Shown one piece after another: positions 546-22,254 of a DNA stretch of 32,000 bases. Below the pieces are notes generated by a model that was not told where the DNA came from, made no database searches, and was given only the letters and a program-made list of their open reading frames with translations. The translations under genes and the position numbers were made by a program. Position 1 is the stretch's first letter, and every line of letters begins with the position of its first letter. This DNA comes from an uncultured Chloroflexia bacterium (GTDB taxonomy: Bacteria; Chloroflexota; Ktedonobacteria; Ktedonobacterales; JADMIN01), in contig CAVRAI010000003.1 in NCBI GenBank assembly GCA_963718915.1, positions 750,001-782,000 on the forward strand. The letters are read 5' to 3'.

Positions 546-1718
546 TCATCTCTCGGCGCGAGCGGTCACGATGTCATTGCGCGCCGCCCAGAGACTGAGG
601 TCGCGCTTCTGGATCGTCGCCGCCATCAGGTCGGGGAAGAGGTCGGGCGTGCAGGCGAACGACGGGATGCCGAGCGAGGCGAGCGTCGCCGCGTTGCGCT
701 GGTCGAAGCTGGGCGCGCCCTTATCGCTGAGCGCCAGCAGGCAGACCATCTGCACGCCACTCGCCGCGATCTCGCCCGCACGCCGCAGCATCTCTTGCGT
801 GTTGCCGCCCTCATAGAGGTCGGTTATCAGCACCAGAATGGTCTGCGCCGGGCGCGTGATAATCTGCTGGCAGTAGGCGAGCGCGCGGTTGATATCGGTG
901 CCGCCGCCCAGTTGCGTGCCAAAGAGCAGGTCTACCGGGTCCTGCAAATCCTCGGTCAGATCCACCACCGACGTATCGAAGACGACCATGCGCGTGCTGA
1001 CGGCGCGAATCGAGGCGAGCACCGCGCCGAAGATGCCCGCATAGACCACCGACGAGGCCATCGAGCCGCTCTGGTCCACGCACAGCACGATGTCGCGCAG
1101 GGCCGAGCGCTTGTGGCCGTAGCCGACAAGCTTCTCGGCGATGATCGTGCCACGGTCGCGCTGGTAGTTCTTCAGGTTGGCGCGGATGGTGCGATGCCAG
1201 TCAATCTCGTTGGCGCGGGGACGGTACGAGCGCGTGGCGCGGTTCAGGCTGCCACGGATCGCCTGCTGCATCGGGCTGGCCAGCTTGCGCTCCAGCTCCT
1301 CGACGACCTTGCGCACGACCGCCCGCGCCGTATCCTTGGTCTTGTCGGGTATGACGTGGCTGAGCGAGAGCAGCGTCGCCACCAGATGCACGTCGGCGTC
1401 CACCTGCTCCAGCATCTCCGGCTGGAGCAGCATCTGTGTCAGGTTGAGCCGCTCTAGCGCGTCCTGCTGCATCACGCGCACCGCCGTCGAGGGGAAATAG
1501 GTGCGGATGTCGCCCAGCCAGCGCGTGACGTTCGGCGATGAGCCGCCCAGGCCAGCTGACCGCTCGCCGTCGTAGAGCGCCGCAAGCACGTCATCCATGC
1601 CACGATCCACACCCACCAGCGCGCCTGTGCCCAGGCTTTCCTGCGCCGGGCCGCCGAGCGCCAACCGCCAGCGTCGCAGCCGCTCGTCTTCTATCGGATC
1701 AGTGATTGGTGTCGTCAT
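546..1718 (-). CDS. VWA domain protein, CoxE-like (MIDAS-containing)
   Basis: 390-aa ORF with a MIDAS motif in ...IVLCVDQSGSMASS... and a later ...ILVLITDLYEGG... VWA core strand. The ~200-aa N-terminal region resembles CoxE-type VWA proteins. The start overlaps the upstream gene by 20 nt. Confidence 0.85.
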   Translation of the reverse strand: MTTPITDPIEDERLRRWRLALGGPAQESLGTGALVGVDRGMDDVLAALYDGERSAGLGGSSPNVTRWLGDIRTYFPSTAVRVMQQDALERLNLTQMLLQPEMLEQVDADVHLVATLLSLSHVIPDKTKDTARAVVRKVVEELERKLASPMQQAIRGSLNRATRSYRPRANEIDWHRTIRANLKNYQRDRGTIIAEKLVGYGHKRSALRDIVLCVDQSGSMASSVVYAGIFGAVLASIRAVSTRMVVFDTSVVDLTEDLQDPVDLLFGTQLGGGTDINRALAYCQQIITRPAQTILVLITDLYEGGNTQEMLRRAGEIAASGVQMVCLLALSDKGAPSFDQRNAATLASLGIPSFACTPDLFPDLMAATIQKRDLSLWAARNDIVTARAER

Positions 1719-4014
1719 AGCTCACCCCCAAAATCCGCGCCAGCACCGGCAAGACCTGTCGTGCGCGCTCCTCGACCACCGCGCCTGTGGTATCGGTCGC
1801 CACAGCGGCGGCGGCGTGATGGAGATTCTTTACCTTCTCACCCATCGTCTGGCGGGCGGGGGCCTCGAAATCGCTGAAGGCGCGCCGTAAGAGCGGCAAG
1901 AGCGCCACGAACGTCTCGCCATCGAGCGCGGCCAGCCAGCCATCCAGCGCCAGCCAGAGGCCATCCTGCGCCATCATCATCTGCGCGCCGCCACGGAGCA
2001 CCCCCGCCACCCATGCGGCGGCCTCCGGCGCGGGTACCGCGGGCGAGAGGGTTAGCCCGGCCAGGCGGCGTAGCTCCTCCGTATCCACCACACCTTTTTC
2101 CAGCAATAAGCGGCAGCAGCGGCCACGCACCAGCCCGTGTACGCCGTCGCGCTCCATCACGACACGCAGCGCGCCCTGCCACGCCAGGCGCAGGTCGTCG
2201 CGCTGCAACATATCCATCGCCTGGTGCGCGCGTTCGATGCTCTCGATCATCTCATTGGCCGCGTCATCATCCAGCGAGGCGCAGGCCACCGGCAGCCCCA
2301 CGACGATACGGGCGTAGAGGTTATCCACGACCGGGAGCACTCGCTCGGCCCGCGTGCCGCGCACGTCGCCGTAGCGCGCGACCCTGGCGAGCGGCGGCGT
2401 GGCGTCCATCAGGCGGCGCACGTCGGCGGAGACCGCTGCCCGCGCCTGAATGTGCGTCAGCAGGTCATCCACCGCGCCGGGCAGATCGGCCAGCATCGCG
2501 CGATCCAGCAGCTCGGTCAGCTCGGCCAGATGGTCCGCTTTGGCGGCGGCGGCGCGGACGGCGGCGGTGGCGGCGGCCTCGATGGTGTTGCCCCAGATGT
2601 TCGCCTCGATAATCTTGACGGCGAACTCAGGCTGCCACTGTAGCCGCCAGTTCTCATGGAAGGTGCCGAGTACTCTCCCGGTGTACTGCTGTTCACCCCA
2701 TTCGATATTCAGCAGCCGCAGCGCATGCAGCAACTTGCTCCGCTCGCGGTCGTTGTCATTGCGCAGATCGAGGTCATAGTCCTTGAAATCCGCGTTTGCT
2801 GGCAGGCGCAGGCGTCGCTGGCGGGCCTCCAGGTCGCGCTGGAGCGGGACGGCGGGTGTCTCTGGCGGCACCTCGCCCATATGCTCGCCAATCTCCAGCT
2901 TCTCGCGAATCAGTGTCATCGGCGCCTCGTCGCCATTGCAGAGCACGGTGAGCGTCGCTTCGTGCATCTCATCCAGCCCCGGCATCGGCAGATCGCGCAT
3001 GGCCGCCAGCGCCTCGGTCAGCCGCACCGCCTCGATCACGCTGGCGCTGGAGACATCCAGGCCCTCGCTCCGCAGCAGGCGGGCCGCCCGCGACATCCAG
3101 CGAACGCCCATCCGGTCGGTGGTCGTCCAGAGGTGCTCGTACCAGCCGGGCGAACCGACGCCCGCGCCATAGCCACTGCGCCAGGAAAGCCGCGAGTTCG
3201 TCCACGGAATCCAGGTCGCCGCCACCTTCGTGCGCGGCAGTTTGCTCAGCAGCGCGGCGTCGCCCTTCATATCGTCGCGTTGCGCCAGCGCGGGAGTATG
3301 CCATGCGCCGCAGACAACGGCGATCCGGCTGAATCCCTCGCCCTCCGCCGTGCGGATGCCCTGGCGCATATGGGCCTCACGCAGCGCCTCTTCCTCGTCC
3401 TTGGGTGTCAGGTCGCTGCGGAGCGCGGTCATCGCCTCCAGGATGCCGTCGAAGAGGTCGTTGGCATTCTGGCGCTGCTCGATCTGGCGCTCCCACCACA
3501 GTTCGTGGTCGCTATAGCCCGCCGCTTCCGCTAGCATCGCCAGCGGATCATCACGCATGGCTGGCGCGTCGGTTGTCGGCGCCTCAGGCACGGCCTCGGC
3601 GACCAGATCAACGGCGCTATCAGCGACTGGAAGCCGCTCCGGCTCGTCCGTCTTGTCGGGCGCTTCTGGCGCGTCGGATACTTCGTCGGCTGCTTCCTGC
3701 GCCAGCCGCACCGCCTGCGGCAGATCAATGAAGCGCGCGGGAATATTGTGGGCCTGCGCGAAGCTCATTGCCTGCCACTCCGGCGAGAAAGTGGTGAAGG
3801 GATAGTAGACGGCGCGCGCGGGCGCATCGGGCGCGTAGATCAGCAGCGCGACCGGTGGCTTCATCGCCGGGTGCGTCAGCAGCGACAGCACCGCATGCGC
3901 GTCGGGTGGGCCTTCCACCAGCACAATATCCGGTTCGAGCCGTTCGAGCGCCTCGCGTAGCGCCCGCGCGCAGCCCGGCCCATGGTGGCGAATGCCAAAG
4001 ATGTGAGTGGTCAC
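1699..4014 (-). CDS. large uncharacterised protein, DUF5682-like
   Basis: 771-aa ORF. Its GTG start lies 12 nt after the ATPase stop, with a GAGGA SD. The N-terminus MTTHIFGIRHHGPGCARALREALERLEPDIVLVEGPPDA matches my recollection of DUF5682 N-termini. I see no other motif I can name. Confidence 0.7.
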   Translation of the reverse strand: MTTHIFGIRHHGPGCARALREALERLEPDIVLVEGPPDAHAVLSLLTHPAMKPPVALLIYAPDAPARAVYYPFTTFSPEWQAMSFAQAHNIPARFIDLPQAVRLAQEAADEVSDAPEAPDKTDEPERLPVADSAVDLVAEAVPEAPTTDAPAMRDDPLAMLAEAAGYSDHELWWERQIEQRQNANDLFDGILEAMTALRSDLTPKDEEEALREAHMRQGIRTAEGEGFSRIAVVCGAWHTPALAQRDDMKGDAALLSKLPRTKVAATWIPWTNSRLSWRSGYGAGVGSPGWYEHLWTTTDRMGVRWMSRAARLLRSEGLDVSSASVIEAVRLTEALAAMRDLPMPGLDEMHEATLTVLCNGDEAPMTLIREKLEIGEHMGEVPPETPAVPLQRDLEARQRRLRLPANADFKDYDLDLRNDNDRERSKLLHALRLLNIEWGEQQYTGRVLGTFHENWRLQWQPEFAVKIIEANIWGNTIEAAATAAVRAAAAKADHLAELTELLDRAMLADLPGAVDDLLTHIQARAAVSADVRRLMDATPPLARVARYGDVRGTRAERVLPVVDNLYARIVVGLPVACASLDDDAANEMIESIERAHQAMDMLQRDDLRLAWQGALRVVMERDGVHGLVRGRCCRLLLEKGVVDTEELRRLAGLTLSPAVPAPEAAAWVAGVLRGGAQMMMAQDGLWLALDGWLAALDGETFVALLPLLRRAFSDFEAPARQTMGEKVKNLHHAAAAVATDTTGAVVEERARQVLPVLARILGVSYDDTNH

Positions 4015-4026
4015 GGCGGCACGTCC

Positions 4027-6396
4027 TCAGATTACTTCGTGGCAGGCCCGATAGAAGTCTTTCCATCCATTGCGGTCCTTGACCACCGTCTGCAGATACT
4101 CCAGCCAGACGATACGATCCTGCACCGGGTCTTTGATGATCGCGCCGGTCAGCCCGGCGGCCAGATCACCCGCATGCATCGCGCCATCGCCATAGTAGGC
4201 GGCCATCGCCAATCCGTTGGTCATCACCGAGATGGCCTCGGCGGTAGAGAGCGTGCCAGAGGGCGACTTCAGTTTGGTCTTGCCGTCAGATGTTACACCA
4301 TCGCGCAGTTCGCGGAAGACTGTGACCACCCGGCGAATCTCCTCGAGCGCGGGCTTCTCGGCGGGCAGTTCCAGCGCGCGGCCAAGTTGCGCCACGCGGC
4401 GATCCACAATCTCCACCTCTTCATCCATGGTCGCGGGCAGCGGCAGCACGACCGTATTGAAGCGGCGCATCAACGCGCTCGATAGCTCGTTAACGCCCTT
4501 ATCGCGGTTATTGGCGGTCGCGATGACGTTAAAGCCCTTCCGCGCCTGCGCCTCTGTATTCAGTTCGGGCACGGGCAGTGTCTTCTCGGAGAGGATGGTA
4601 ATCAGCGTATCCTGCACCTCGGCGGGGATGCGGGTCAACTCCTCGATACGCGCCAGCCGCCCCTCACGCATCGCCCGCATCATCGGGCTGACTACCAGCG
4701 CCTCCGCCGACGGCCCCTCCACCAGCAGCCGCGCATAATTCCAGCCATAGCGGATGGCCGACTCGTCGGTGCCCGCGGTCCCCTGGATCATCAGCGTCGA
4801 GTCGCCCGTGATGGCGGCGGCCAGATGCTCAGAAACCCAACTGTTGTGGATGATGATGTCGTTGGCCACGAAATTGTGGGTATCAGCCATGCTCAAGTCA
4901 TACACCTGATGATCGCCAATCGGCTCAATCGAGACAATGGTATCCCAATAGATGGCGCTCTCGGCGAGTTGACGAAGTTCCTCGTTACGAGTAAGCGCCG
5001 CAAGGCGCATTAAGCGTGACCGCGAAATGCTTTGATGCGGACGAGCCGAAGCCTTAGCAGTCATCTTACGCTGATTTATATCGGCTTGTAGCAACATTCC
5101 TACACTGCTGTATCCTGAGCCAACGGCGGCGCTTTGGAGACGCACCCATATCTGTTGGGGAATTGTATCCAGATTGGGGTTGACCAATCCTCTAAAGGAC
5201 TCTAAATGGGCGTTAGCTTCTTGGATGTATTTGCGCCCCAAGAGTCCAATCTCGTTCAGGAAAATCCTACACTGCCCTGTTCCATGAATGAAGAGCCGGT
5301 AGTGTCCGCTAGACAAATGGCGGACACGTGAGTTGATGCCGAAGCGCAACAGCAAATGCTGCACGTCTCGTATCAATCGTTTCGATTTGCTCGCGTAATC
5401 AATGGTGACTTGTTTCTTGGGAGTGTTGCGCATGTGGAGGAATCCATCGCCACTGAACAAGCGATTAAGGAAGAGCGCCACTTGTCTTCTGGGCAACATG
5501 AAAACCAAATCGGGAATGAATTTGGTTCCTGAGTTCGTACCCATTAGCCCCAACTCTCGAAGCCATTGGGTGCATGGGTTTTGGAATTTGCCCCCACCTC
5601 CACGTTGTTGCCTTGAAACACTGCAAGTTCTGCCATCGGGATACCAGTGCGCTTGAAGGTCGGGAAAGGCTTCGGTGACCGCCTTACTGAAGTCATCCTT
5701 CATATCAAGATTGGTATTAGTAAAGTAAGGCAGTTCCTGAGTGAGCGTGCCTTCAGCAAGCAGATGAGCGAGCAATTTGACGTGCGCGTCACTTATCTTT
5801 GCTATTCCGAAATACGGCATCGATCGAGGAACCGCGATTCTGTTGCCCACCTCAAGTTTCTCGAGCGGACGCCAACCATCTATGGTAAGGAAGGGATGGT
5901 TGAGTGTCACCTCGATTTCCCGCCCCAAGTGGGTTGTAACGCGATAGCACGGGCGAATGCCGTTATCCACGTAGTCACTGGGAGCTTGTGATTTGAGCTG
6001 ATACTCGGGGTTTAAGGAGGCCACTTCAATGTTACGTGTTCTGCATGCTTCGGCGATGGTTACTCGTCTTCCAGTCCGCGTATCCAGTACCAGAGCGTCA
6101 TGTTTTACACACTTGGCGGTCCCCGGCAGCCCGTAGAGCAGCAGGGCGCGGTCGGTGGCGAGGGTGGCGACGGCGATCTCGATCAGGCGGGCGTTGCCAA
6201 TATATTTGGGCGAGATGGTGAAGCCGCTATCCAGTTTGCCGCCAAGCAGGTAGGTGCGCACGGCCCAGGGGGAAAGCGTCCAGTTGGGCGGACGCTGGCG
6301 GTCATCCACGCGCGCCAACTCGGCCAACTCTTCGGCGAATTGCTGCTCGGCGTGCTGGCGCAGGACGGCATCGTTGACGATGTTCTCAGAGGCCAT
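4027..6396 (-). CDS. AAA_5 / MoxR-type AAA+ ATPase, interrupted by an intein (precursor 789 aa, predicted spliced product 366 aa)
   Basis: Removing aa 96-518 restores Walker A as GLPGTAK|S. The downstream segments ...GRLARIEELTRIPAEVQDTLITILSEKTLPVPE... and ...FNVIATANNRDKGVNELSSALMRRF... are typical of MoxR/dynein-related AAA_5 ATPases. Confidence 0.9.
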   Translation of the reverse strand: MASENIVNDAVLRQHAEQQFAEELAELARVDDRQRPPNWTLSPWAVRTYLLGGKLDSGFTISPKYIGNARLIEIAVATLATDRALLLYGLPGTAKCVKHDALVLDTRTGRRVTIAEACRTRNIEVASLNPEYQLKSQAPSDYVDNGIRPCYRVTTHLGREIEVTLNHPFLTIDGWRPLEKLEVGNRIAVPRSMPYFGIAKISDAHVKLLAHLLAEGTLTQELPYFTNTNLDMKDDFSKAVTEAFPDLQAHWYPDGRTCSVSRQQRGGGGKFQNPCTQWLRELGLMGTNSGTKFIPDLVFMLPRRQVALFLNRLFSGDGFLHMRNTPKKQVTIDYASKSKRLIRDVQHLLLRFGINSRVRHLSSGHYRLFIHGTGQCRIFLNEIGLLGRKYIQEANAHLESFRGLVNPNLDTIPQQIWVRLQSAAVGSGYSSVGMLLQADINQRKMTAKASARPHQSISRSRLMRLAALTRNEELRQLAESAIYWDTIVSIEPIGDHQVYDLSMADTHNFVANDIIIHNSWVSEHLAAAITGDSTLMIQGTAGTDESAIRYGWNYARLLVEGPSAEALVVSPMMRAMREGRLARIEELTRIPAEVQDTLITILSEKTLPVPELNTEAQARKGFNVIATANNRDKGVNELSSALMRRFNTVVLPLPATMDEEVEIVDRRVAQLGRALELPAEKPALEEIRRVVTVFRELRDGVTSDGKTKLKSPSGTLSTAEAISVMTNGLAMAAYYGDGAMHAGDLAAGLTGAIIKDPVQDRIVWLEYLQTVVKDRNGWKDFYRACHEVI
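4843..6111 (-). mobile_element. 423-aa intein with LAGLIDADG homing-endonuclease domain, inserted in the Walker A P-loop
   Basis: Cys96 (tgt, 6109-6111) follows the Walker A Lys directly. Block B is TLNHPF. The two LAGLIDADG-type motifs are LLAHLLAEGTL and LNRLFSGDGFL. Blocks F/G read VYDLSMADTHNFVANDIIIHN, ending at Asn518 (aac, 4843-4845), followed by +1 Ser (agt, 4840-4842). GC is visibly lower than in the flanking extein DNA. Confidence 0.85.
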
Positions 6397-6522: not shown

Positions 6523-8100
6523 CTACGGCGCGCTCGCGCCCGGAATCTCGTCGCGGATGCGCTGGCGCTGGCGCACCGCCTTCAGGAACTGGTCGTGCTG
6601 CTCGCGCCACGTGACCGCCTGCCATCGGTTGTTGTTGTACTCGCCCATCTCCCAGGGCGAGAGCGCCTCGTCGAGGCATTCCGCTGGCAGGAGGGTCGCG
6701 TGTTCATCTGAGCATTCGCGCCAGTCGGGGGCGTAGCTCTTCAGCGACGCCAGTTCGTCGCGGGCGAAGGCGCGCAGACCCGCGAGCCATGCGCGCGCCA
6801 GCTCGACGCTCCATGGGCGAGGTAGAGCCGCCATCAGTGTATCCCACGCGATATCCTGCTTCGATTCGCCGTCCCGCAGGATTTTCAGCGCCATCGTCTC
6901 CAAGGCGGACTGTGGCAGCTTTGGCAGCAGTAACTCGCACATCTCCAGCGGCGCCACGCCACCGCTGGCGCGCTTGCCAAGCCGTTTGCTCCATGCCTCC
7001 ACCAGTGGCTGGACCCAGTGACTCGCATCATAGAGCACAGTGGCGCGTGACCAGCCCTCCAGGATTTCGACGCCATGCTCGTCGGTCGCGGCGGCGATCA
7101 GGTCGGCAGGCGACATCCCAAACCGCTCGACCCAGTGCGCGGGCGGTGTCACCGCGACGATCTGCATCAGCCACCACGAGCGCTCGCCCATCCCCTGTCG
7201 CGGCTTTGCCACGATGCCATCGCGCTCCCAGCTTTTCTCATGCGCCTCGGGCAGTGTCGTCGCCAGCTTCTTCTTGCCCATAGTCAGCAGCATATCGGCG
7301 CGAGCAATGGCGCGGGCCTGAAACGCCGAGCCGGGAATCCGCGCCAGTAGCCGCTGCGCCACGGCGCGCACGTTGCCGCTACGGTCGTCCAGCGCGGTTT
7401 CGAGCAGTTGCTCGTCAACGGCGGAGAGATTATTGGCCAGCGCCTCGACCAGTTCAGCGCGGAAATCGGCCTTCTCCTGCCGCCAGACCGCTGCGATCTC
7501 GTCGCGCGCCTTCGCCGGATCGGTGGATCGCCAGTGCGCCAGCATTTGCAGACGGTCAGCGGATGCGCCCTCCTGCCAGACGGCGTCGGCGTCGGCAGGC
7601 ATCTCATCGAGGCGATGTGTCAGGGAGTCGCGCACCCATGACCAGGCGCTATTGAAGCCGCCGAGCCACGCGCCACGCTCGCCCGCCACCTGCGCCATCA
7701 GCGGACGCTGCGCCACCGTCGCGCCGCCCAGCGCCAGCGGCAGCATCTCCGGCGGCAGAATCAGTCCAGCGGCAATCATGCGCTCCAGCGCCTCACGCAG
7801 CAGATCATTCGAGCGCGCGGTGAGCAACTGCTGTATCAGGTCGGCGACGTGCGCCGGGCAGACCGTTTTTGTTTCGGCGGGCGCAGGCTCCAGCGGCGCA
7901 TCCAGCCGTTCCGGCGCGTAGCCCGCCAGACCATAGATGGCGCGCGCACCGGCAGCCAGCAACAGCCGCTGCTCGATGTTGACATCCGCGAGTGGCCCCA
8001 CCAGCGATCCCTCAGGGGTGGCGAGGGCCAGCGCCTCATCCAGCGGGGCGCGGGCGGAGCCAACCAGCGCGGCGTTTGTGATGCGATCCATGCTGCCCAT
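6523..8100 (-). CDS. Ala/Leu-rich helical protein, DUF5691-like (uncharacterised)
   Basis: 525-aa ORF. Its ATG abuts the SWIM gene stop (8100/8101), with a GGGGAGGA SD. The composition suggests an all-helical repeat protein. The family assignment is from memory of this gene order and is unverified. Confidence 0.6.
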   Translation of the reverse strand: MGSMDRITNAALVGSARAPLDEALALATPEGSLVGPLADVNIEQRLLLAAGARAIYGLAGYAPERLDAPLEPAPAETKTVCPAHVADLIQQLLTARSNDLLREALERMIAAGLILPPEMLPLALGGATVAQRPLMAQVAGERGAWLGGFNSAWSWVRDSLTHRLDEMPADADAVWQEGASADRLQMLAHWRSTDPAKARDEIAAVWRQEKADFRAELVEALANNLSAVDEQLLETALDDRSGNVRAVAQRLLARIPGSAFQARAIARADMLLTMGKKKLATTLPEAHEKSWERDGIVAKPRQGMGERSWWLMQIVAVTPPAHWVERFGMSPADLIAAATDEHGVEILEGWSRATVLYDASHWVQPLVEAWSKRLGKRASGGVAPLEMCELLLPKLPQSALETMALKILRDGESKQDIAWDTLMAALPRPWSVELARAWLAGLRAFARDELASLKSYAPDWRECSDEHATLLPAECLDEALSPWEMGEYNNNRWQAVTWREQHDQFLKAVRQRQRIRDEIPGASAP

Positions 8101-9462
8101 CTAGTCGTCCTCCCCCAGTGGATGATAGACGCCATTGCTGAGCGCCCCCAGCGGACGGAACGCGCGCCCATCCCACTCGCCAGCCACATCCACCGGATGC
8201 CCGCCAGAGATCGCCAGCAGCGGCCAGTGGTCACCGGAGGTCACGGGCAGCGCCGCGCCATCGGCGTCACGCACGCGCCAGACGCCCGTAGCGGAATCGT
8301 AGTGTGGCGTCACCTGCGCGAGCACCGCCAGAAAGCGCTCCTGCCACGGCTGGCGCGCGAGCGATGCGGCGACTCCAGCGAGAAACGGCTCGATGGCGCA
8401 GGCGCCGGGAAGCGGGCCAGTCAGCGAATGGACATCACCCTGGCGAACCATCAGGGACGCGCGTTGCGGGCTGGCGCCGGGCCAGAATCCCAACTCCGCC
8501 CGCTGGCTCACGCCGGGCATCAGCAATTCAGCGAAGGGCCTGCCGGGCAACGCGAACTGCACAATCAGGGCGGTTCGTCCAGTGGAGTAGCCGCGCAGCC
8601 AGGTATATTGCGACTGGCCACCTATTGAGCCGCGATCCTGCGTCTCGACCCACTGGCCGAGGAATGCCCAATCGTCGCTGATGCGCTCGCCTTGCGTCTC
8701 CAGATCAGCGGCGTTGTAATTCCAGCCGACGAGATGGCGCACATCCTCATGCAGCGCGGGATCGAGCGCATCCAGCCGGGCGAACGCCTGCGTCACCAGC
8801 GCGACGCGGCCCAGATCGCCAAGCAGCCGATCCGGCCAGTCTGGCGTGGAGCCGGGGAGCGTCGCCATTGTCCGCAGCCGTCCGGCGATACCCTGCGCCT
8901 GCGCGTCGGTCATGCGCGCCGCCTGCGCCTCCCAGAAGCTTTCGGGCTGCGTCTCGGCAGCGGCCAGCCCATTACGCACGAGGTCATCAAGCCAGAGATT
9001 CAGTCCGGCGATACCATCGGCGACCAGCTTCTCGCGTTTCTCGGCACGTTTGGCTTTGCCTTTCTCTCGCGCCTGCTCTTTGGCGGCGGCCTCCTCGGGC
9101 GAGAGCGTCTCCTCGGCGGCATGCTTTTCCTCGTGGGAGTGGCGCTTGGCCAGCCAGTCGGCCACCCAGGATGGCGGCTCCGCCTCGGCCACATCGCTTG
9201 CTTTAGCGGCGAAGATCAGCATCAGGCCAAGCCCATGTTTGCAGGGAAATTTGCGGCTGGGACAGCTGCATTTGACGCTGAGCGTCGCCAGGTCCACCTC
9301 TACTCTATAAGGGGCTTTGCCGCTGCCCTGGCACTCGCCCCAGAGAGCGTCAGGATTACGGCCAAGTGACTTCCACTGGCGGGTGTTGGCAAGCTTGCGT
9401 CCCGCGGCGGCGGATGCGCTATCTGGGGCGAGGGCAAGCGCCTGCTCGCTGGTAAATGGCAT
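8101..9462 (-). CDS. SWIM zinc-finger protein
   Basis: 453-aa ORF with the SWIM signature CSCPSRKFPCKH (CxCx6CxH) at aa 65-76. A Lys/Glu-rich linker (...EEAAAKEQAREKGKAKRAEKREK...) and a ~300-aa C-terminal domain follow. A GGAGAGGGAGAG SD precedes the ATG. Confidence 0.85.
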   Translation of the reverse strand: MPFTSEQALALAPDSASAAAGRKLANTRQWKSLGRNPDALWGECQGSGKAPYRVEVDLATLSVKCSCPSRKFPCKHGLGLMLIFAAKASDVAEAEPPSWVADWLAKRHSHEEKHAAEETLSPEEAAAKEQAREKGKAKRAEKREKLVADGIAGLNLWLDDLVRNGLAAAETQPESFWEAQAARMTDAQAQGIAGRLRTMATLPGSTPDWPDRLLGDLGRVALVTQAFARLDALDPALHEDVRHLVGWNYNAADLETQGERISDDWAFLGQWVETQDRGSIGGQSQYTWLRGYSTGRTALIVQFALPGRPFAELLMPGVSQRAELGFWPGASPQRASLMVRQGDVHSLTGPLPGACAIEPFLAGVAASLARQPWQERFLAVLAQVTPHYDSATGVWRVRDADGAALPVTSGDHWPLLAISGGHPVDVAGEWDGRAFRPLGALSNGVYHPLGEDD

Positions 9463-12166: not shown

Positions 12167-13305
12167 TTAGCTCCTGGCCTTGATCTCGGCGACGATCTTC
12201 TGCGCGCCGTCGCGCATGTCTGCGCCCCAGGTGAGGCCAGCGTCGGCCAGCAGGGCGCGGCCCTCAACCTCGCCGGTGCCGGAGAGGCGGGCGACGATAG
12301 GCATGCCCTTGGGAAGCTCGCCCTGGGCCATGATAATGCCCTTCGCCACCTCTTCGCCACGGGTGATACCGCCGAAGATATTGACCAGAATGCCGCGCAC
12401 CTGGGGGTCGCGGGCGACGAAGAGCAGCGCCTTCTTCATCACCTCGGCCTTGGCGCCGCCGCCGATATCGAGGAAGTTAGCGGGTTTGCCACCGGAGCGG
12501 GCGACCATATCGAGCGTCGTCATGACGAGGCCCGCGCCGTTGCCGATGATGCCAACATCGCCGTCGAGCTTGACGTAGGTCAGCCCCTCGCCCTTCGCCT
12601 CGAACTCCAGTGGGTTCGCCTCTTCCGGCTCGGCCCAACTGGCGTACTCTTTCTGGCGCGGCAGGCCATTGTCGTCAATCAGGATTTTGCCGTCGGCGGC
12701 GAGCACCTGACCATCAGCGGTGAGGGCGAGCGGGTTGATCTCGGCGAGCGTTGCGTCGCTGCCCTCATAGGCGCGGGCCAGCGCGGCGAGAATCGCGCCG
12801 CCCTTCGCGACGACGCTGGAGGGCATGCCCGCCCGTGCGAGCAGTTCGCGCGCCTGCCATGCGGGCAGTCCCCAGCGCACGTCGATAGTGTGCTTGATGA
12901 TCTTTTCGGGCGTCGTCTCGGCGACCTCTTCGATATCGACGCCGCCCGCCGCGCTGACCATGACGACCGGGGCCTGGCTGGCGCGGTCGAGGACGATGCC
13001 GACGTAGTATTCATCGCGATGGCGATCTTGGGTGTAACCAGGACTTTCTCGACGGTCAGCCCTTTGATGTCCATCCCAAGCACACGGCTCGCGGCGTCGC
13101 GCGCCTGCTCGGGCGTATCGCCAAACTGGATGCCGCCCGCCTTGCCACGTCCGCCGACGTAGACCTGCGCTTTGATGACGACCGGCTCGCCAAACTCGCG
13201 GGCGATCTCCTCGGCCTGTTCCGGCGTGGTGGCGATTTTGCCCGGCTGCACGGGGATGCCGTACCGGCGCATGATTTCTTTCGCCTGGTACTCATGAATC
13301 TTCAA
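12167..13305 (-). pseudogene. sucC: succinyl-CoA synthetase beta subunit, reading frame broken by a 1-nt deletion (or sequencing error)
   Basis: TTG start at 13305 with a GGGAG SD gives (M)[18 protein letters not shown]... in one frame up to ...[10 protein letters not shown]. The homologous continuation [30 protein letters not shown]... is in another frame. Only 2 nt (13013-13014) separate the two frames. Confidence 0.9.
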
Positions 13306-13331
13306 TGGTTCAGCTCCCTGAAATAAATACC

Positions 13332-13390
13332 GCTGGCGGCTGAAGCCGCGCCTAAGGGCCTTCGACCGCAAAGCCCGCCTGCGCGGGCTA
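13332..13390. repeat. 60-nt intergenic repeat, copy 2
   Basis: gctggcggctgaagccgcgcctaagggccttcgaccgcaaagcccgcctgcgcgggcta is nearly identical to 9894-9953. Confidence 0.8.
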
Positions 13391-13545
13391 GCAGAATTGG
13401 TGGCACATGGCTCCGTTGCCATGTGGCGTCATGCGTTGCCCTGCCAAATAGCTCTACTCAGAGATAGTACCACGAGCTATGGCGGCTGGCCGCTCCATCT
13501 ACTCAGTCACTCTTTGAGATACGATGCAGTTGTCGGATCATACGC

Positions 13546-14761
13546 TCAATTACTGTAGTAGTCTTCCCTCAACCTTTTGGCATAGTTGGTGCGTCCTAGC
13601 GCGTCAAGTGAGGCAAGATAAAGTTGGAATGCTTCACTGTCGTCCTTAAAGGCTCCATCACGGATCCGCTTAACGAAACGCCACCTGAGTGCATTCCCGT
13701 AGCGATTTTCGAAGATATGCACAATCAAGCCGTAGGTTTCTCTAGCATCATCGGGCAGCCCAATCTTCATAAACGCCTCAGCAAACATGTAAAGAGTACG
13801 AATATCAGACAGTGTATTTAGAAGGGGTCGTTCACTGTACCACATTGCCACTAAAGCATTGAGACGATTAATGCGTTTCAGTCCCTCGATCAACTCCATG
13901 AGTAGCTGATTTCGCTCAAGTTTTCCGCGTTGACTCCAGTGATGAGAGGAACGAAGCATTGAAAATGCTTGCAACAGTTCGTGTTCATCAGTCAGTGTGC
14001 GAAAGATTTTAACATAAGTGAAATCGCTACTGACGCTACGGCCAAACATACCATATGTTGTGGATACAGGGGTTGTGGATACAGGGGTTGTGGATACAGG
14101 GGTTGTGGATACAGACCAGAGATACTCATCGTCAGGATCAATCAAGAGGATGTGAAATAGAGCTTGACCTTCCGAGCCAGGATCGTTTATCGCACCTAGA
14201 ACAGAGGCCTTGATTTCGAGTACATCGATGTTCTTCGGATCGAGGGCGAGGACGCGCTCACAGACCGATAGTGCATTAGTATAGCTTCCTTCTGTCGAGC
14301 GGGATCTGCAGAGCCTAATCAAGTCTTCGAGAGTCTCTGCTGTTGCCACAGGTGCGGCATCCAGCCCAGGCGCTGGTGGCGTTTCTATAGCCATAATGGT
14401 GACGCGGGACGCCGCATGCGGCTCCTCGCCGACGACGGCGATCCACTGAATTGTAAGCAAGAAGCCTGATACCTGGGTGTTGCGTAACAGCACAGGCAAG
14501 ATGCGTCGCCGCGTCGCGATAGCCAACTGCAATTCATCCTGCACCCATTTGGATTCCCATGCTTCAGGGGTCAGTACCAGCAGGAATACGTCGCGATTCT
14601 CTACCTCACTTCTGGATGCTATCTACCCATGCTGCGCCGCCCTGGAGTCCCGTCTCGTCATACCAGACATCATAGCCAACAGCCTTGAGAGCATCGGCGA
14701 ATGGGCGGCACCATTCGTTATCCTGGTGGCTATGGCTGACGAAGATACGTACCTGTGCCAT
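13546..14761 (-). pseudogene. TIR-domain protein with TPR-like/helical C-terminal domain, frameshifted by one extra base
   Basis: ATG at 14761 with a GGAGGGAG SD 7 nt upstream. The N-terminal frame reads MAQVRIFVSHSHQDNEWCRPFADALKAVGYDVWYDETGLQGGAAWVDSIQK, then TGA at 14606-14608. Skipping base 14608 continues EVENRDVFLLVLTPEAWESKWVQDELQLAIATRRRILPVLL... (TIR_2-like). The low-GC C-terminal part contains a TPR-like ...ALSVCERVLALDPKNIDVLEIKASVL.... Confidence 0.8.
14056..14115. repeat. 15-nt tandem repeat x4 (ggttgtggatacagg) inside the TIR-gene C-terminal region
   Basis: Four head-to-tail copies, the first and last with 1 mismatch. They encode (STTPV)x4 on the minus strand. Confidence 0.95.
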
Positions 14762-14848
14762 TATGTATCTCCCTCCATCGGCAAGTACTCAATATTGGCC
14801 CATTGTAGCACAAGCAATGAGAGGGCGAGATGTGAACAAGGTGGGCGC

Positions 14849-21164: not shown

Positions 21165-21362
21165 CCACCAGCGTTTCTCCTACGCCTGAACCCCGCAGCC
21201 ATCTCTGCCAGCCAGTGTCCGTATGTGTCCACATGTGTCGGGATATGACCACGAGGAGCCGCTTGACAACTCGCCTGCATGCATCCACTATTGTCCCTGA
21301 GCATGCGATGTTGGCGACGTGTGATTTGCCAGTCACGTGATGGCAGGCAGGAGGTACATCTC

Positions 21363-22254
21363 ATGAGCGACGATCCTAACGACACGAACGAAATCAATGA
21401 CGAACAGGCGATGCTCCCGTTCGACGATGGCAGCATGGGGCGCCTCGTTCGTCGGCAATGGCATGAGGGACAGTGGTATTTCAGCGTTGTAGACGTGATC
21501 GCGGTGCTGACCGATAGCGACGCACCGCGCCGCTACTGGAGTGATCTGAAGCGCAAACTCCACGATGATGAAGGGTTCAGCCAGTTGTACGAAAAAATCG
21601 TACAACTGAAAATGCGTTCGCCGCTCGATGGCAAGAAATACGCTACCGACGCCGCCGATGCGGAAACCATGCTGCGCATCGTGCAGAGCGTGCCCAGTCC
21701 CAAGGCTGAGCCGATCAAGCAGTGGCTAGCGCGGGAAGGCGCCAAGCGTCTGGAGGAGATGGCGGCGGAGCTTCCTGAAAGCCAGAAGCGCCTGCTCTTG
21801 CGCGGAGAGGTCGCCGAGAAGAACCGCAGCCTTGCGGATACCGTCTCCGCCGCAGGAGTTCTCACGCGGCGTGACTTTGCCATCTTCCAGGATTTCGGCT
21901 ACCGGGGGGCTCTATGGTGGCGAGAAGGCCAGTGACATCGCCACACGCAAGGGTCTCGCATGCGGCCAGCATATCCTCGACCACATGGAGAGCGAGGAAC
22001 TCGCCGCGAACTGGTTCCGCATCACTCAGACCGAGGCCAAGATACGCCGCGAGGAGATCGATAACAAGGCCGACGCCAACGCCGCGCACCATGTCGTTGG
22101 CCGTGAGGTGCGCGAGACCATAGCTCGGCTTGGCGGCACGATGCCCGAAGACCTGCCCACCCCGGAGCAGTCCATCCAGCAGCTCGAACGCGCCGAACAA
22201 CAGCGCATTCAGGCTGAGCGCCAGCCTCTACTCCTCTCCGATGCCAACCACTAA
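21363..22254 (+). pseudogene. DinD-like protein (Bro-N-like N-terminus + DinD C-terminus), frameshifted in a G6 run
   Basis: ATG at 21363 (AGGAGG SD) gives ...QWHEGQWYFSVVDVIAVLTDS...FAIFQDFGYRG. The continuation LYGGEKASDIATRKGLACGQHILDHMESEELAANWFRITQTEAKIRRE...GGTMPEDLPTPEQSIQQLE is in the next frame. The switch is at GGGGGG, 21904-21909. Confidence 0.8.

Follow-up and report, generated by a model that had tools for sequence, protein, structure and literature searches.

What is a 423-residue insert doing in the ATP-binding loop of a chaperone-type ATPase, and does it serve the host protein or itself? The question is raised by a 32,000-nucleotide stretch of contig CAVRAI010000003.1 (here called the window), from the genome of an uncultured soil Chloroflexota bacterium of the Ktedonobacterales type, in which such an insert interrupts the gene of a MoxR-class ATPase. 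Our analysis indicates that the element is very probably a selfish, mobile class 1 intein, equipped with its own LAGLIDADG homing endonuclease and lying in frame at the Walker A Lys/Ser of the ATPase. The endonuclease is probably active.

Window positions 4843 to 6111 are an intein that separates Lys95 from the Ser that follows it in the Walker A loop. The precursor reads ...LLLYGLPGTAK-CVKHDALVLD...THNFVANDIIIHN-SWVSEHLAAAI... (hyphens mark splice junctions here and below) in a single uninterrupted frame of 2,370 nucleotides, and the intein occurs once in the window. It was recognized by Pfam Intein_splicing (75.5 bits across precursor residues 109 to 518; cutoff, 35.8), Pfam LAGLIDADG_3 (56.1 bits on residues 305 to 384; cutoff, 22.5), and the NCBIfam models TIGR01445, intein_Nterm (32.1 bits on residues 96 to 171; cutoff, 24.5), and TIGR01443, intein_Cterm (24.7 bits; cutoff, 15.6). 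PRK07773, an NCBIfam model of intein-containing DnaB, matches through its intein part at 325 bits. These family-model matches are far beyond chance. An initial annotation of the window had called a full-length, 423-residue LAGLIDADG intein at this position, and the translation, the Pfam and NCBIfam models, and the predicted fold bear it out; the motifs that it quoted, TLNHPF (intein residues 69 to 74), LLAHLLAEG, LNRLFSGDG, and block F/G, are all present. It had also proposed alignment to intein hidden Markov models as a check, and TIGR01445, TIGR01443, and Intein_splicing all score above their cutoffs.

The class 1 catalytic set is complete and intact, comprising Cys1, Thr69/His72, Asp405, His422, Asn423, and the +1 Ser. 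In an alignment of 46 relatives, D405, N413, F414, A416, H422, and N423 are nearly invariant, and the block F/G residues that lead up to the C-terminal junction (VYDLSMADTHNFVANDIIIHN, then the +1 Ser) are kept in at least 90% of the sequences. Dead intein endonucleases are marked by loss of the block C and block E acidic residues (PMC8966425). Both of these (Glu120 and Asp222) are present in the window intein: Glu120 is retained in every member that we read of the clade described below, and in the 46-sequence alignment D222 is nearly invariant and G223 invariant. Three noncatalytic cysteines, C55, C163, and C180, are also found repeatedly among the clade members that we read.

In a comparison with solved structures, each half of the Hint domain can be aligned with the Ssp DnaB mini-intein, and blocks A, B, F, and G fall into register (...TLNHPFLTIDGW... 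and ...HNFVANDIIIHN). An AlphaFold model of the intein, built with the 46 relatives as input, had a predicted local distance difference test score (pLDDT) of 94.6 and a predicted template modeling score (pTM) of 0.93. Its best Foldseek match in the PDB is the TliVMA intein (E value, 6e-23; template modeling [TM] score, 0.70), followed by PI-PfuI, PI-PkoII, and PI-SceI; the endonuclease domain matched TliVMA, PI-PfuI, PI-SceI, and I-DmoI. The Hint part superimposes on the Ssp DnaB, Npu DnaB, and Mtu RecA mini-inteins with a root mean square deviation of 1.2 to 1.7 Å over about 96 residues.

Searching with the spliced 366-residue sequence matched thousands of MoxR-like ATPases, of which we examined the best 120. 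These are 84 to 97% identical to the query and 367 to 388 residues long, and they come mostly from metagenome-assembled genomes (MAGs) of Ktedonobacterales or from Dictyobacter. All 120 lack the insert and have a continuous loop, G[LVI]PG[TV][AG]K-S. The syntenic loci L002 to L006, whose ATPases reach 97% protein identity to that of the window, likewise lack it. A blastn comparison of L002 with the window aligned both flanks of the insert at 85 to 92% DNA identity, and a codon-level comparison of L002 to L006 puts the junction exactly at the insert. Because the orthologues and syntenic alleles run uninterrupted through the Lys-Ser junction, both intein boundaries are fixed. The initial annotation had placed the insertion in the P-loop of the ATPase of a five-gene operon and had recommended comparison with insert-less orthologues; those orthologues and the syntenic alleles uphold the placement and confirm its exact limits.

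The predicted spliced ATPase is 366 residues long and carries the commonest version of the loop in its family. Excision had been said to recreate a textbook P-loop; the P-loop is indeed restored, but "textbook" overstates the case, since GLPGTAKS is a GxxGxAKS variant with Ala at the last Gly of GxxxxGK[ST]. This Ala variant is the consensus of the ATPase family (118 of 120 orthologues). Assignment to the MoxR class follows from the Pfam AAA_5 match on precursor residues 519 to 646 (105.5 bits; cutoff, 22), the Walker A, Walker B, sensor 1, and Arg-finger elements listed in Table 1, and a VWA partner gene, VWA_CoxE, two genes downstream.

Table 1. Window coordinates of the intein, its host gene, and the surrounding gene cluster
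Feature	Position	Strand	Description and basis
Precursor open reading frame (cluster gene 3, intein-split MoxR ATPase)	4027..6396	-	789 amino acids plus stop; MoxR-class AAA+ (AAA_5) ATPase with intein; translation, Pfam
N-extein	6112..6396	-	Amino acids 1-95; colinear with intein-less orthologues L002 and L005
First seven Walker A residues	6112..6132	-	GLPGTAK, end of N-extein
Intein	4843..6111	-	423 amino acids (Cys1-Asn423; precursor Cys96-Asn518); class 1 Hint domain plus inserted double-motif LAGLIDADG homing endonuclease
Block A	6070..6111	-	Includes Cys1 nucleophile; TIGR01445; aligns with Ssp DnaB intein N terminus
Cys1 codon	6109..6111	-	TGT
Block B	5884..5913	-	EVTLNHPFLT (Thr69, His72, intein numbering); aligns with ATANHRFLT of Ssp DnaB intein
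LAGLIDADG motif 1	5749..5775	-	LLAHLLAEG, intein residues 113-121; acidic Glu120
LAGLIDADG motif 2	5443..5469	-	LNRLFSGDG, intein residues 215-223; Asp222, Gly223
Blocks F and G	4843..4908	-	QVYDLSMADTHNFVAN-DIIIHN, intein residues 402-423; Asp405, His412, penultimate His422, terminal Asn423; TIGR01443
C-extein	4030..4842	-	Amino acids 519-789; starts with +1 Ser, the Walker A Ser
+1 Ser codon	4840..4842	-	AGT
Walker B-like element	within 4630..4656	-	IEE (not DE)
Sensor 1	within 4507..4530	-	VIATAN
Arg-finger region	4459..4482	-	
Cluster gene 1, SWIM zinc-finger protein	8101..9462	-	453 amino acids; Pfam SWIM; same position in L002-L005 and L007
Cluster gene 2, DUF5691 protein	6523..8100	-	525 amino acids; Pfam DUF5691, 388 bits; synteny
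Cluster gene 4, DUF5682 protein	1699..4014	-	771 amino acids; Pfam DUF5682, 881 bits; synteny
Cluster gene 5, CoxE-like VWA-domain protein	546..1718	-	390 amino acids; Pfam VWA_CoxE, 171 bits; synteny

We infer from the sequence that the insert splices, that its endonuclease acts, and that the precursor is inactive. The 789-residue precursor would be translated, Cys1 would attack the Lys95-Cys96 peptide bond, the N-extein would be transferred to the +1 Ser, and Asn423 would cyclize, releasing a 366-residue ATPase with the family-consensus loop GLPGTAK-SWVSEHL together with a free 423-residue intein-endonuclease. The freed endonuclease would then cut intein-less alleles at the same site, and repair would copy the intein in (homing). 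Precursors of other P-loop inteins have been shown to be unable to bind ATP (PMC4513877; discussed in PMC6195587). By analogy, the window precursor is very likely unable to bind ATP, so that splicing would be required for the system, although in a trivial sense. The initial claim that no ATP is bound before splicing is a reasonable extrapolation from such published P-loop inteins, RadA among them, as cited in PMC6195587.

Where does the intein come from? A search for relatives returned a small clade that shares both its ATPase host family and its insertion site with the window intein, with 55 to 87% identity and many members present as fragments; they come from Ktedonobacterales, and one is labelled Herpetosiphonaceae. 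A species scan (one genome per species, 185,579 species) gave three full-length copies, all in Ktedonobacterales/Chloroflexia MAGs: L007 (84% identity), L008 (82%), and L009 (70%). Among 1.84 billion cluster representatives, an exhaustive HMMER scan added one full-length member of the clade, P0241 (65% identity, in a more divergent ATPase, VGEPGTAK-C), and two fragments. Apart from the clade, that scan found no match above about 47% identity and none between 47% and 65%. The clade is small, isolated, and confined to this ATPase family in Ktedonobacterales/Chloroflexia. A related intein at L012:1798-4225 sits in a more divergent MoxR-like ATPase with a canonical P-loop, GEPGTGK-C; its gene is called as two open reading frames owing to a frameshift after "...KVGDRIA", which reflects either decay of the copy or an error in sequencing.

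Database clusters of 504 to 509 residues that start at one internal Met (MG[TL]xS..KF[IV]P) had suggested a naturally split or disrupted intein. This was ruled out: the frames of L001 and L013 are open to the contig end, which makes these clusters gene-calling artifacts on truncated contigs, and a real frameshift occurs only in L012. L001:1 and L013:1 are independent metagenome contigs that end within two codons of each other at block B (EVTLNHPF). These near-coincident ends and the common internal Met of the database clusters look like a systematic assembly or gene-calling artifact around the intein, possibly from strain polymorphism.

The nearest outgroups are DnaB inteins, at about 35 to 43% identity. 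They occupy both the P-loop site b (ARPSMGK-C...HN-T) and the H4 site a (RESG-C...HN-SIEQD), often in one multi-intein DnaB. Other relatives, likewise placed after Lys and before Ser or Thr, lie in archaeal ATPases, AAA_24 proteins, the large terminase, dCTP deaminase, and PolIII alpha. Those with 30 to 40% identity are all at xGK-[ST]: P0213, P0217, and P0229 (dCTP deaminase), P0226 (PolIII alpha), P0218 (terminase), P0221 (AAA_24), and P0158 (archaeal ATPase). The Lys-before-Ser/Thr junction is found even in proteins without a P-loop (AIGK-STYARSG in dCTP deaminase and FNK-SHA in PolIII alpha), which hints at a junction preference in the wider lineage of the window intein.

A neighbor-joining tree recovered the AAA_5 clade in every one of 30 bootstraps and placed it outside a group in which DnaB-a, DnaB-b, Dcd, and PolIII inteins are mixed, without resolving its sister group. 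DnaB site b was considered as a specific donor, being the best outgroup in a word-seeded search, and was rejected: AAA_5 grouped with DnaB-b in only 7 of 30 bootstraps, and the exhaustive search scored inteins of site a and of site b about equally.

Several lines of evidence bear on mobility. Purifying selection is strong on the endonuclease and extends to the rest of the intein: the ratio of nonsynonymous to synonymous divergence (dN/dS) is 0.065 to 0.075 for the intein overall, 0.064 to 0.067 for the endonuclease region, and 0.04 to 0.10 for the Hint parts, in a host whose exteins have values of 0.04 to 0.24 across regions and pairs (0.04 to 0.14 for the window and L007). Because dN/dS is low in both endonuclease and Hint regions, both activities are under constraint. 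The histories of intein and host are discordant. Between the window and L007, the C-exteins are 98.2% identical and extein synonymous divergence (dS) is about 0.31 to 0.35, whereas the inteins are 84% identical with a dS of 1.27. Between the window and L008, the exteins are about 83% identical, and the inteins, at 82 to 83%, are as alike as those of the window and L007. Over 21 pairs, intein and extein identity are uncorrelated (Spearman 0.23, p 0.32), and intein-less L002 and L005 are no more distant from the window than intein-bearing L007 is.

The composition of the intein is foreign. The initial annotation had noted that the insert is AT-richer than the extein, as we measured (GC, 0.506 versus 0.638). 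At third codon positions (GC3) the values are 0.556 versus 0.809, and the four neighboring cluster genes range from 0.76 to 0.87. Only 0.4% of the other 1,269-nucleotide windows in the 32 kb are equally AT-rich, all of them in a second low-GC island near 13500. At every one of the nine intein-bearing loci, the intein is richer in AT than the extein that carries it (GC3, 0.53 to 0.74 versus 0.79 to 0.94), and the inteins are mutually divergent, with dS above 1.2. This lack of amelioration in nine loci implies that the inteins either are constantly reintroduced from an unsampled reservoir of lower GC or escape the process that raises GC3 in the host. We speculate that the AT-richness might be kept by continual transfer or by escape from GC-biased conversion, most alleles being intein-less.

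The +1 Ser codon is AGY (AGT or AGC) in all nine intein-bearing alleles; among six distinct intein-less lineages it is TCG in four and AGC in two. TCG cannot be reached from AGY by one synonymous step, and the pattern would fit a codon that travels with the intein or belongs to its target. We observe, then, purifying selection together with a phylogenetic and compositional pattern of horizontal spread, and selection, discordance, presence and absence, composition, and the +1 codon jointly favor repeated horizontal acquisition by homing. The earlier suggestion of homing that may be active even now is supported indirectly by the endonuclease dN/dS, by the intein/extein discordance, and by presence and absence among hosts whose ATPase proteins are 97% identical.

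Other observations weigh against this conclusion. The mobility sample is small, consisting of nine intein-bearing loci (the window, L001, and L007 to L013), several of them partial, and comparing dS across regions of very different GC3 is imperfect. The neighbor-joining tree and the exhaustive search identify no donor lineage. No clear co-conversion tract extends beyond the first C-extein codons: the first 60 nucleotides are slightly more divergent (7 to 11 differences; mean, about 5), an excess that does not settle the matter. The frameshifted L012 intein would represent decay within the clade. Both the missing tract and L012 would suit an intein that still splices but no longer moves, its endonuclease inactive or kept for some other reason, so that presence and absence record rare precise losses instead of gains; the intein would then survive solely because an imprecise loss would ruin the P-loop. 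That inteins are hard to lose from essential catalytic sites is an argument summarized in PMC6195587, and AGC at +1 in two intein-less lineages could be the scar of precise loss. We nevertheless regard this immobile state as unlikely: the endonuclease region is constrained as strongly as the splicing domain and conserves both acidic residues, GC3 is unameliorated in every locus, and intein and host divergence are uncoupled, with L007 pairing an extein dS of about 0.31 with an intein dS of 1.27 and L008 pairing a window-like intein with a distant extein.

A more adaptive hypothesis is that the intein has been domesticated as a conditional splicing switch, responding for example to redox state, metal, or temperature, which keeps the MoxR ATPase, and with it the SWIM/DUF5691/DUF5682/VWA system, inactive in the absence of a signal. 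Among P-loop inteins, those of Pho RadA and M. smegmatis DnaBi1 are documented to splice conditionally (PMC4513877, PMC6195587, PMC7360933), the window precursor is almost certainly unable to bind ATP, and the Cys1 nucleophile is accompanied by the recurring cysteines C55, C163, and C180. Yet the intein occurs rarely and sporadically (it is missing from all 120 closest orthologues), syntenic systems with a 97%-identical ATPase work without it, its endonuclease is under selection, its composition is foreign with no trace of a long stay in the host, and its Hint domain resembles those of fast-splicing class 1 DnaB inteins. We consider such domestication very improbable; that the intein is more than a parasite in the broader sense of controlling the whole SWIM-DUF5691-MoxR-DUF5682-VWA machine, for example via Cys1 and the recurring cysteines, seems scarcely more probable. 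A milder version is that an isolated lineage could be actively homing after having colonized a non-replication AAA+ chaperone. Least credible of all, to the point of being nearly negligible, is a nonsplicing insert that has inactivated the ATPase gene of the cluster and turned it into a pseudogene. Splicing is deduced rather than seen, and at least one further gene of the window, sucC, is frameshifted, but the 2,370-nucleotide frame is unbroken, every splicing residue is present, the exteins of intein-bearing alleles are under strong purifying selection (0.04 to 0.14, window versus L007), and four independent full-length intein-bearing genes are intact. The sporadic rarity of the intein among orthologues and the near-identical intein-less systems argue for a selfish element over an adapted regulator.

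How does this selfish, mobile intein compare with known ones? The Lys-Ser/Thr position of the P-loop is a classic insertion site (PMC5050341), and many inteins lie in P-loops (PMC4760082). TerL1-a of mycobacteriophages, archaeal MCM-a and RFC-a, and Pho RadA occupy a structurally equivalent position (PMC5050341, PMC4760082, PMC6195587), and in these, as in the window intein, the precursor is expected to lack ATPase activity; intein lineages and hosts differ. For RadA and Msm DnaBi1, conditional splicing has been demonstrated. The endonuclease-containing class 1 inteins of DnaB site b share the Walker A Lys and Ser/Thr position, Cys1, a full LAGLIDADG endonuclease, and a similar length, and they were the highest-scoring relatives outside the clade in the word-seeded search (38 to 43% identity). 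Their host, however, is a RecA-fold SF4 helicase and not a MoxR AAA+ protein, and the extein flanks are unrelated. We therefore rejected the reading of the window intein as a DnaB-b allele: its host is AAA_5, the sole shared point is the structural Lys-Ser/Thr position, and it represents a distinct allele family. The mycobacterial DnaB site b inteins covered by PMC6195587 are, unlike the window intein, class 3 mini-inteins.

The Ssp and Mtu DnaB inteins (site a, motif H4; PDB 1MI8) share the class 1 chemistry, and their blocks A, B, F, and G match (...HNFVANDIIVHN). The window Hint domain is about 36% identical to the Ssp DnaB intein, which is described as highly active. Their insertion point, RESG-SIEQDAD, lies in a DNA-binding loop of another host protein, not in a P-loop. 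As whole two-domain structures, TliVMA (PDB 7QSS), PI-PfuI (1DQ3), and PI-SceI are the best matches (Foldseek E values, 6e-23 to 1e-10), but sequence identity is only 10 to 18%, the host organisms are archaea or yeast, and both the interrupted proteins and the insertion points differ. The TliVMA endonuclease is experimentally active and has both catalytic acidic residues (PMC8966425). The literature searched described no intein in a MoxR-family protein; papers naming both were unrelated phage genome papers.

The five genes of this conserved cluster are codirectional and tightly packed, and the cluster is present both with the intein (L001 and L007) and without it (L002 to L005). Contigs with a 97%-identical ATPase have the gene order M24 peptidase, SWIM, DUF5691, ATPase, DUF5682, VWA_CoxE. 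MoxR chaperone modules are usually recognized by an AAA_5 ATPase that has a CoxE-like VWA protein as its partner. Chaperone pairs of this MoxR-VWA kind, among them CoxD/CoxE and RavA/ViaA, were reportedly treated by Snider and Houry in 2006 (cited in PMC2147016); the window cluster shares with them an AAA_5 ATPase encoded alongside a CoxE-like VWA protein and differs in its extra SWIM, DUF5691, and DUF5682 proteins. A PADLOC search for defense-system membership gave no credible match for the cluster proteins (marginal hits to IetA, with an E value of 0.003, and to DpdE, with an E value of 2e-4 over 80 residues), and the literature searched held nothing relevant on DUF5682/DUF5691 or on SWIM+MoxR+VWA clusters.

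Elsewhere in the window, sucC (succinyl-CoA ligase beta subunit; 12167..13422, minus strand) is represented by two overlapping open reading frames, 12679..13422 and 12167..12961. The frame switches near 13010..13025, after "...PKIAIA," through a single-base frameshift that could be an assembly error or mark a pseudogene. The second low-GC island, at about 13500..14770, has about 50% GC, as low as the intein. It includes an open reading frame (13546..14544, minus strand) for a 332-residue protein that matches TPR weakly and contains a tandem repeat of the peptide TTPVS. Another open reading frame (21279..21935, plus strand) encodes a BRO-N domain, typically phage associated, and lies among shikimate dehydrogenase, class IV aminotransferase, and arginase genes.

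ATPase P-loop inteins are known, and the window intein involves no new mechanism; the novelty lies in the host, a MoxR-class AAA+ protein of an uncharacterized cluster, and in the isolated intein lineage of Ktedonobacterales. Gene callers split or truncate these intein genes, which annotators of Ktedonobacteria MAGs should expect. Alleles with and without the intein, at almost the same host divergence, form a natural series convenient for studying homing, the role of the +1 codon, and the persistence of AT-rich mobile inserts in GC-rich genomes. With this locus, a MoxR-class chaperone ATPase, an AAA+ protein outside replication, joins the list of intein hosts.

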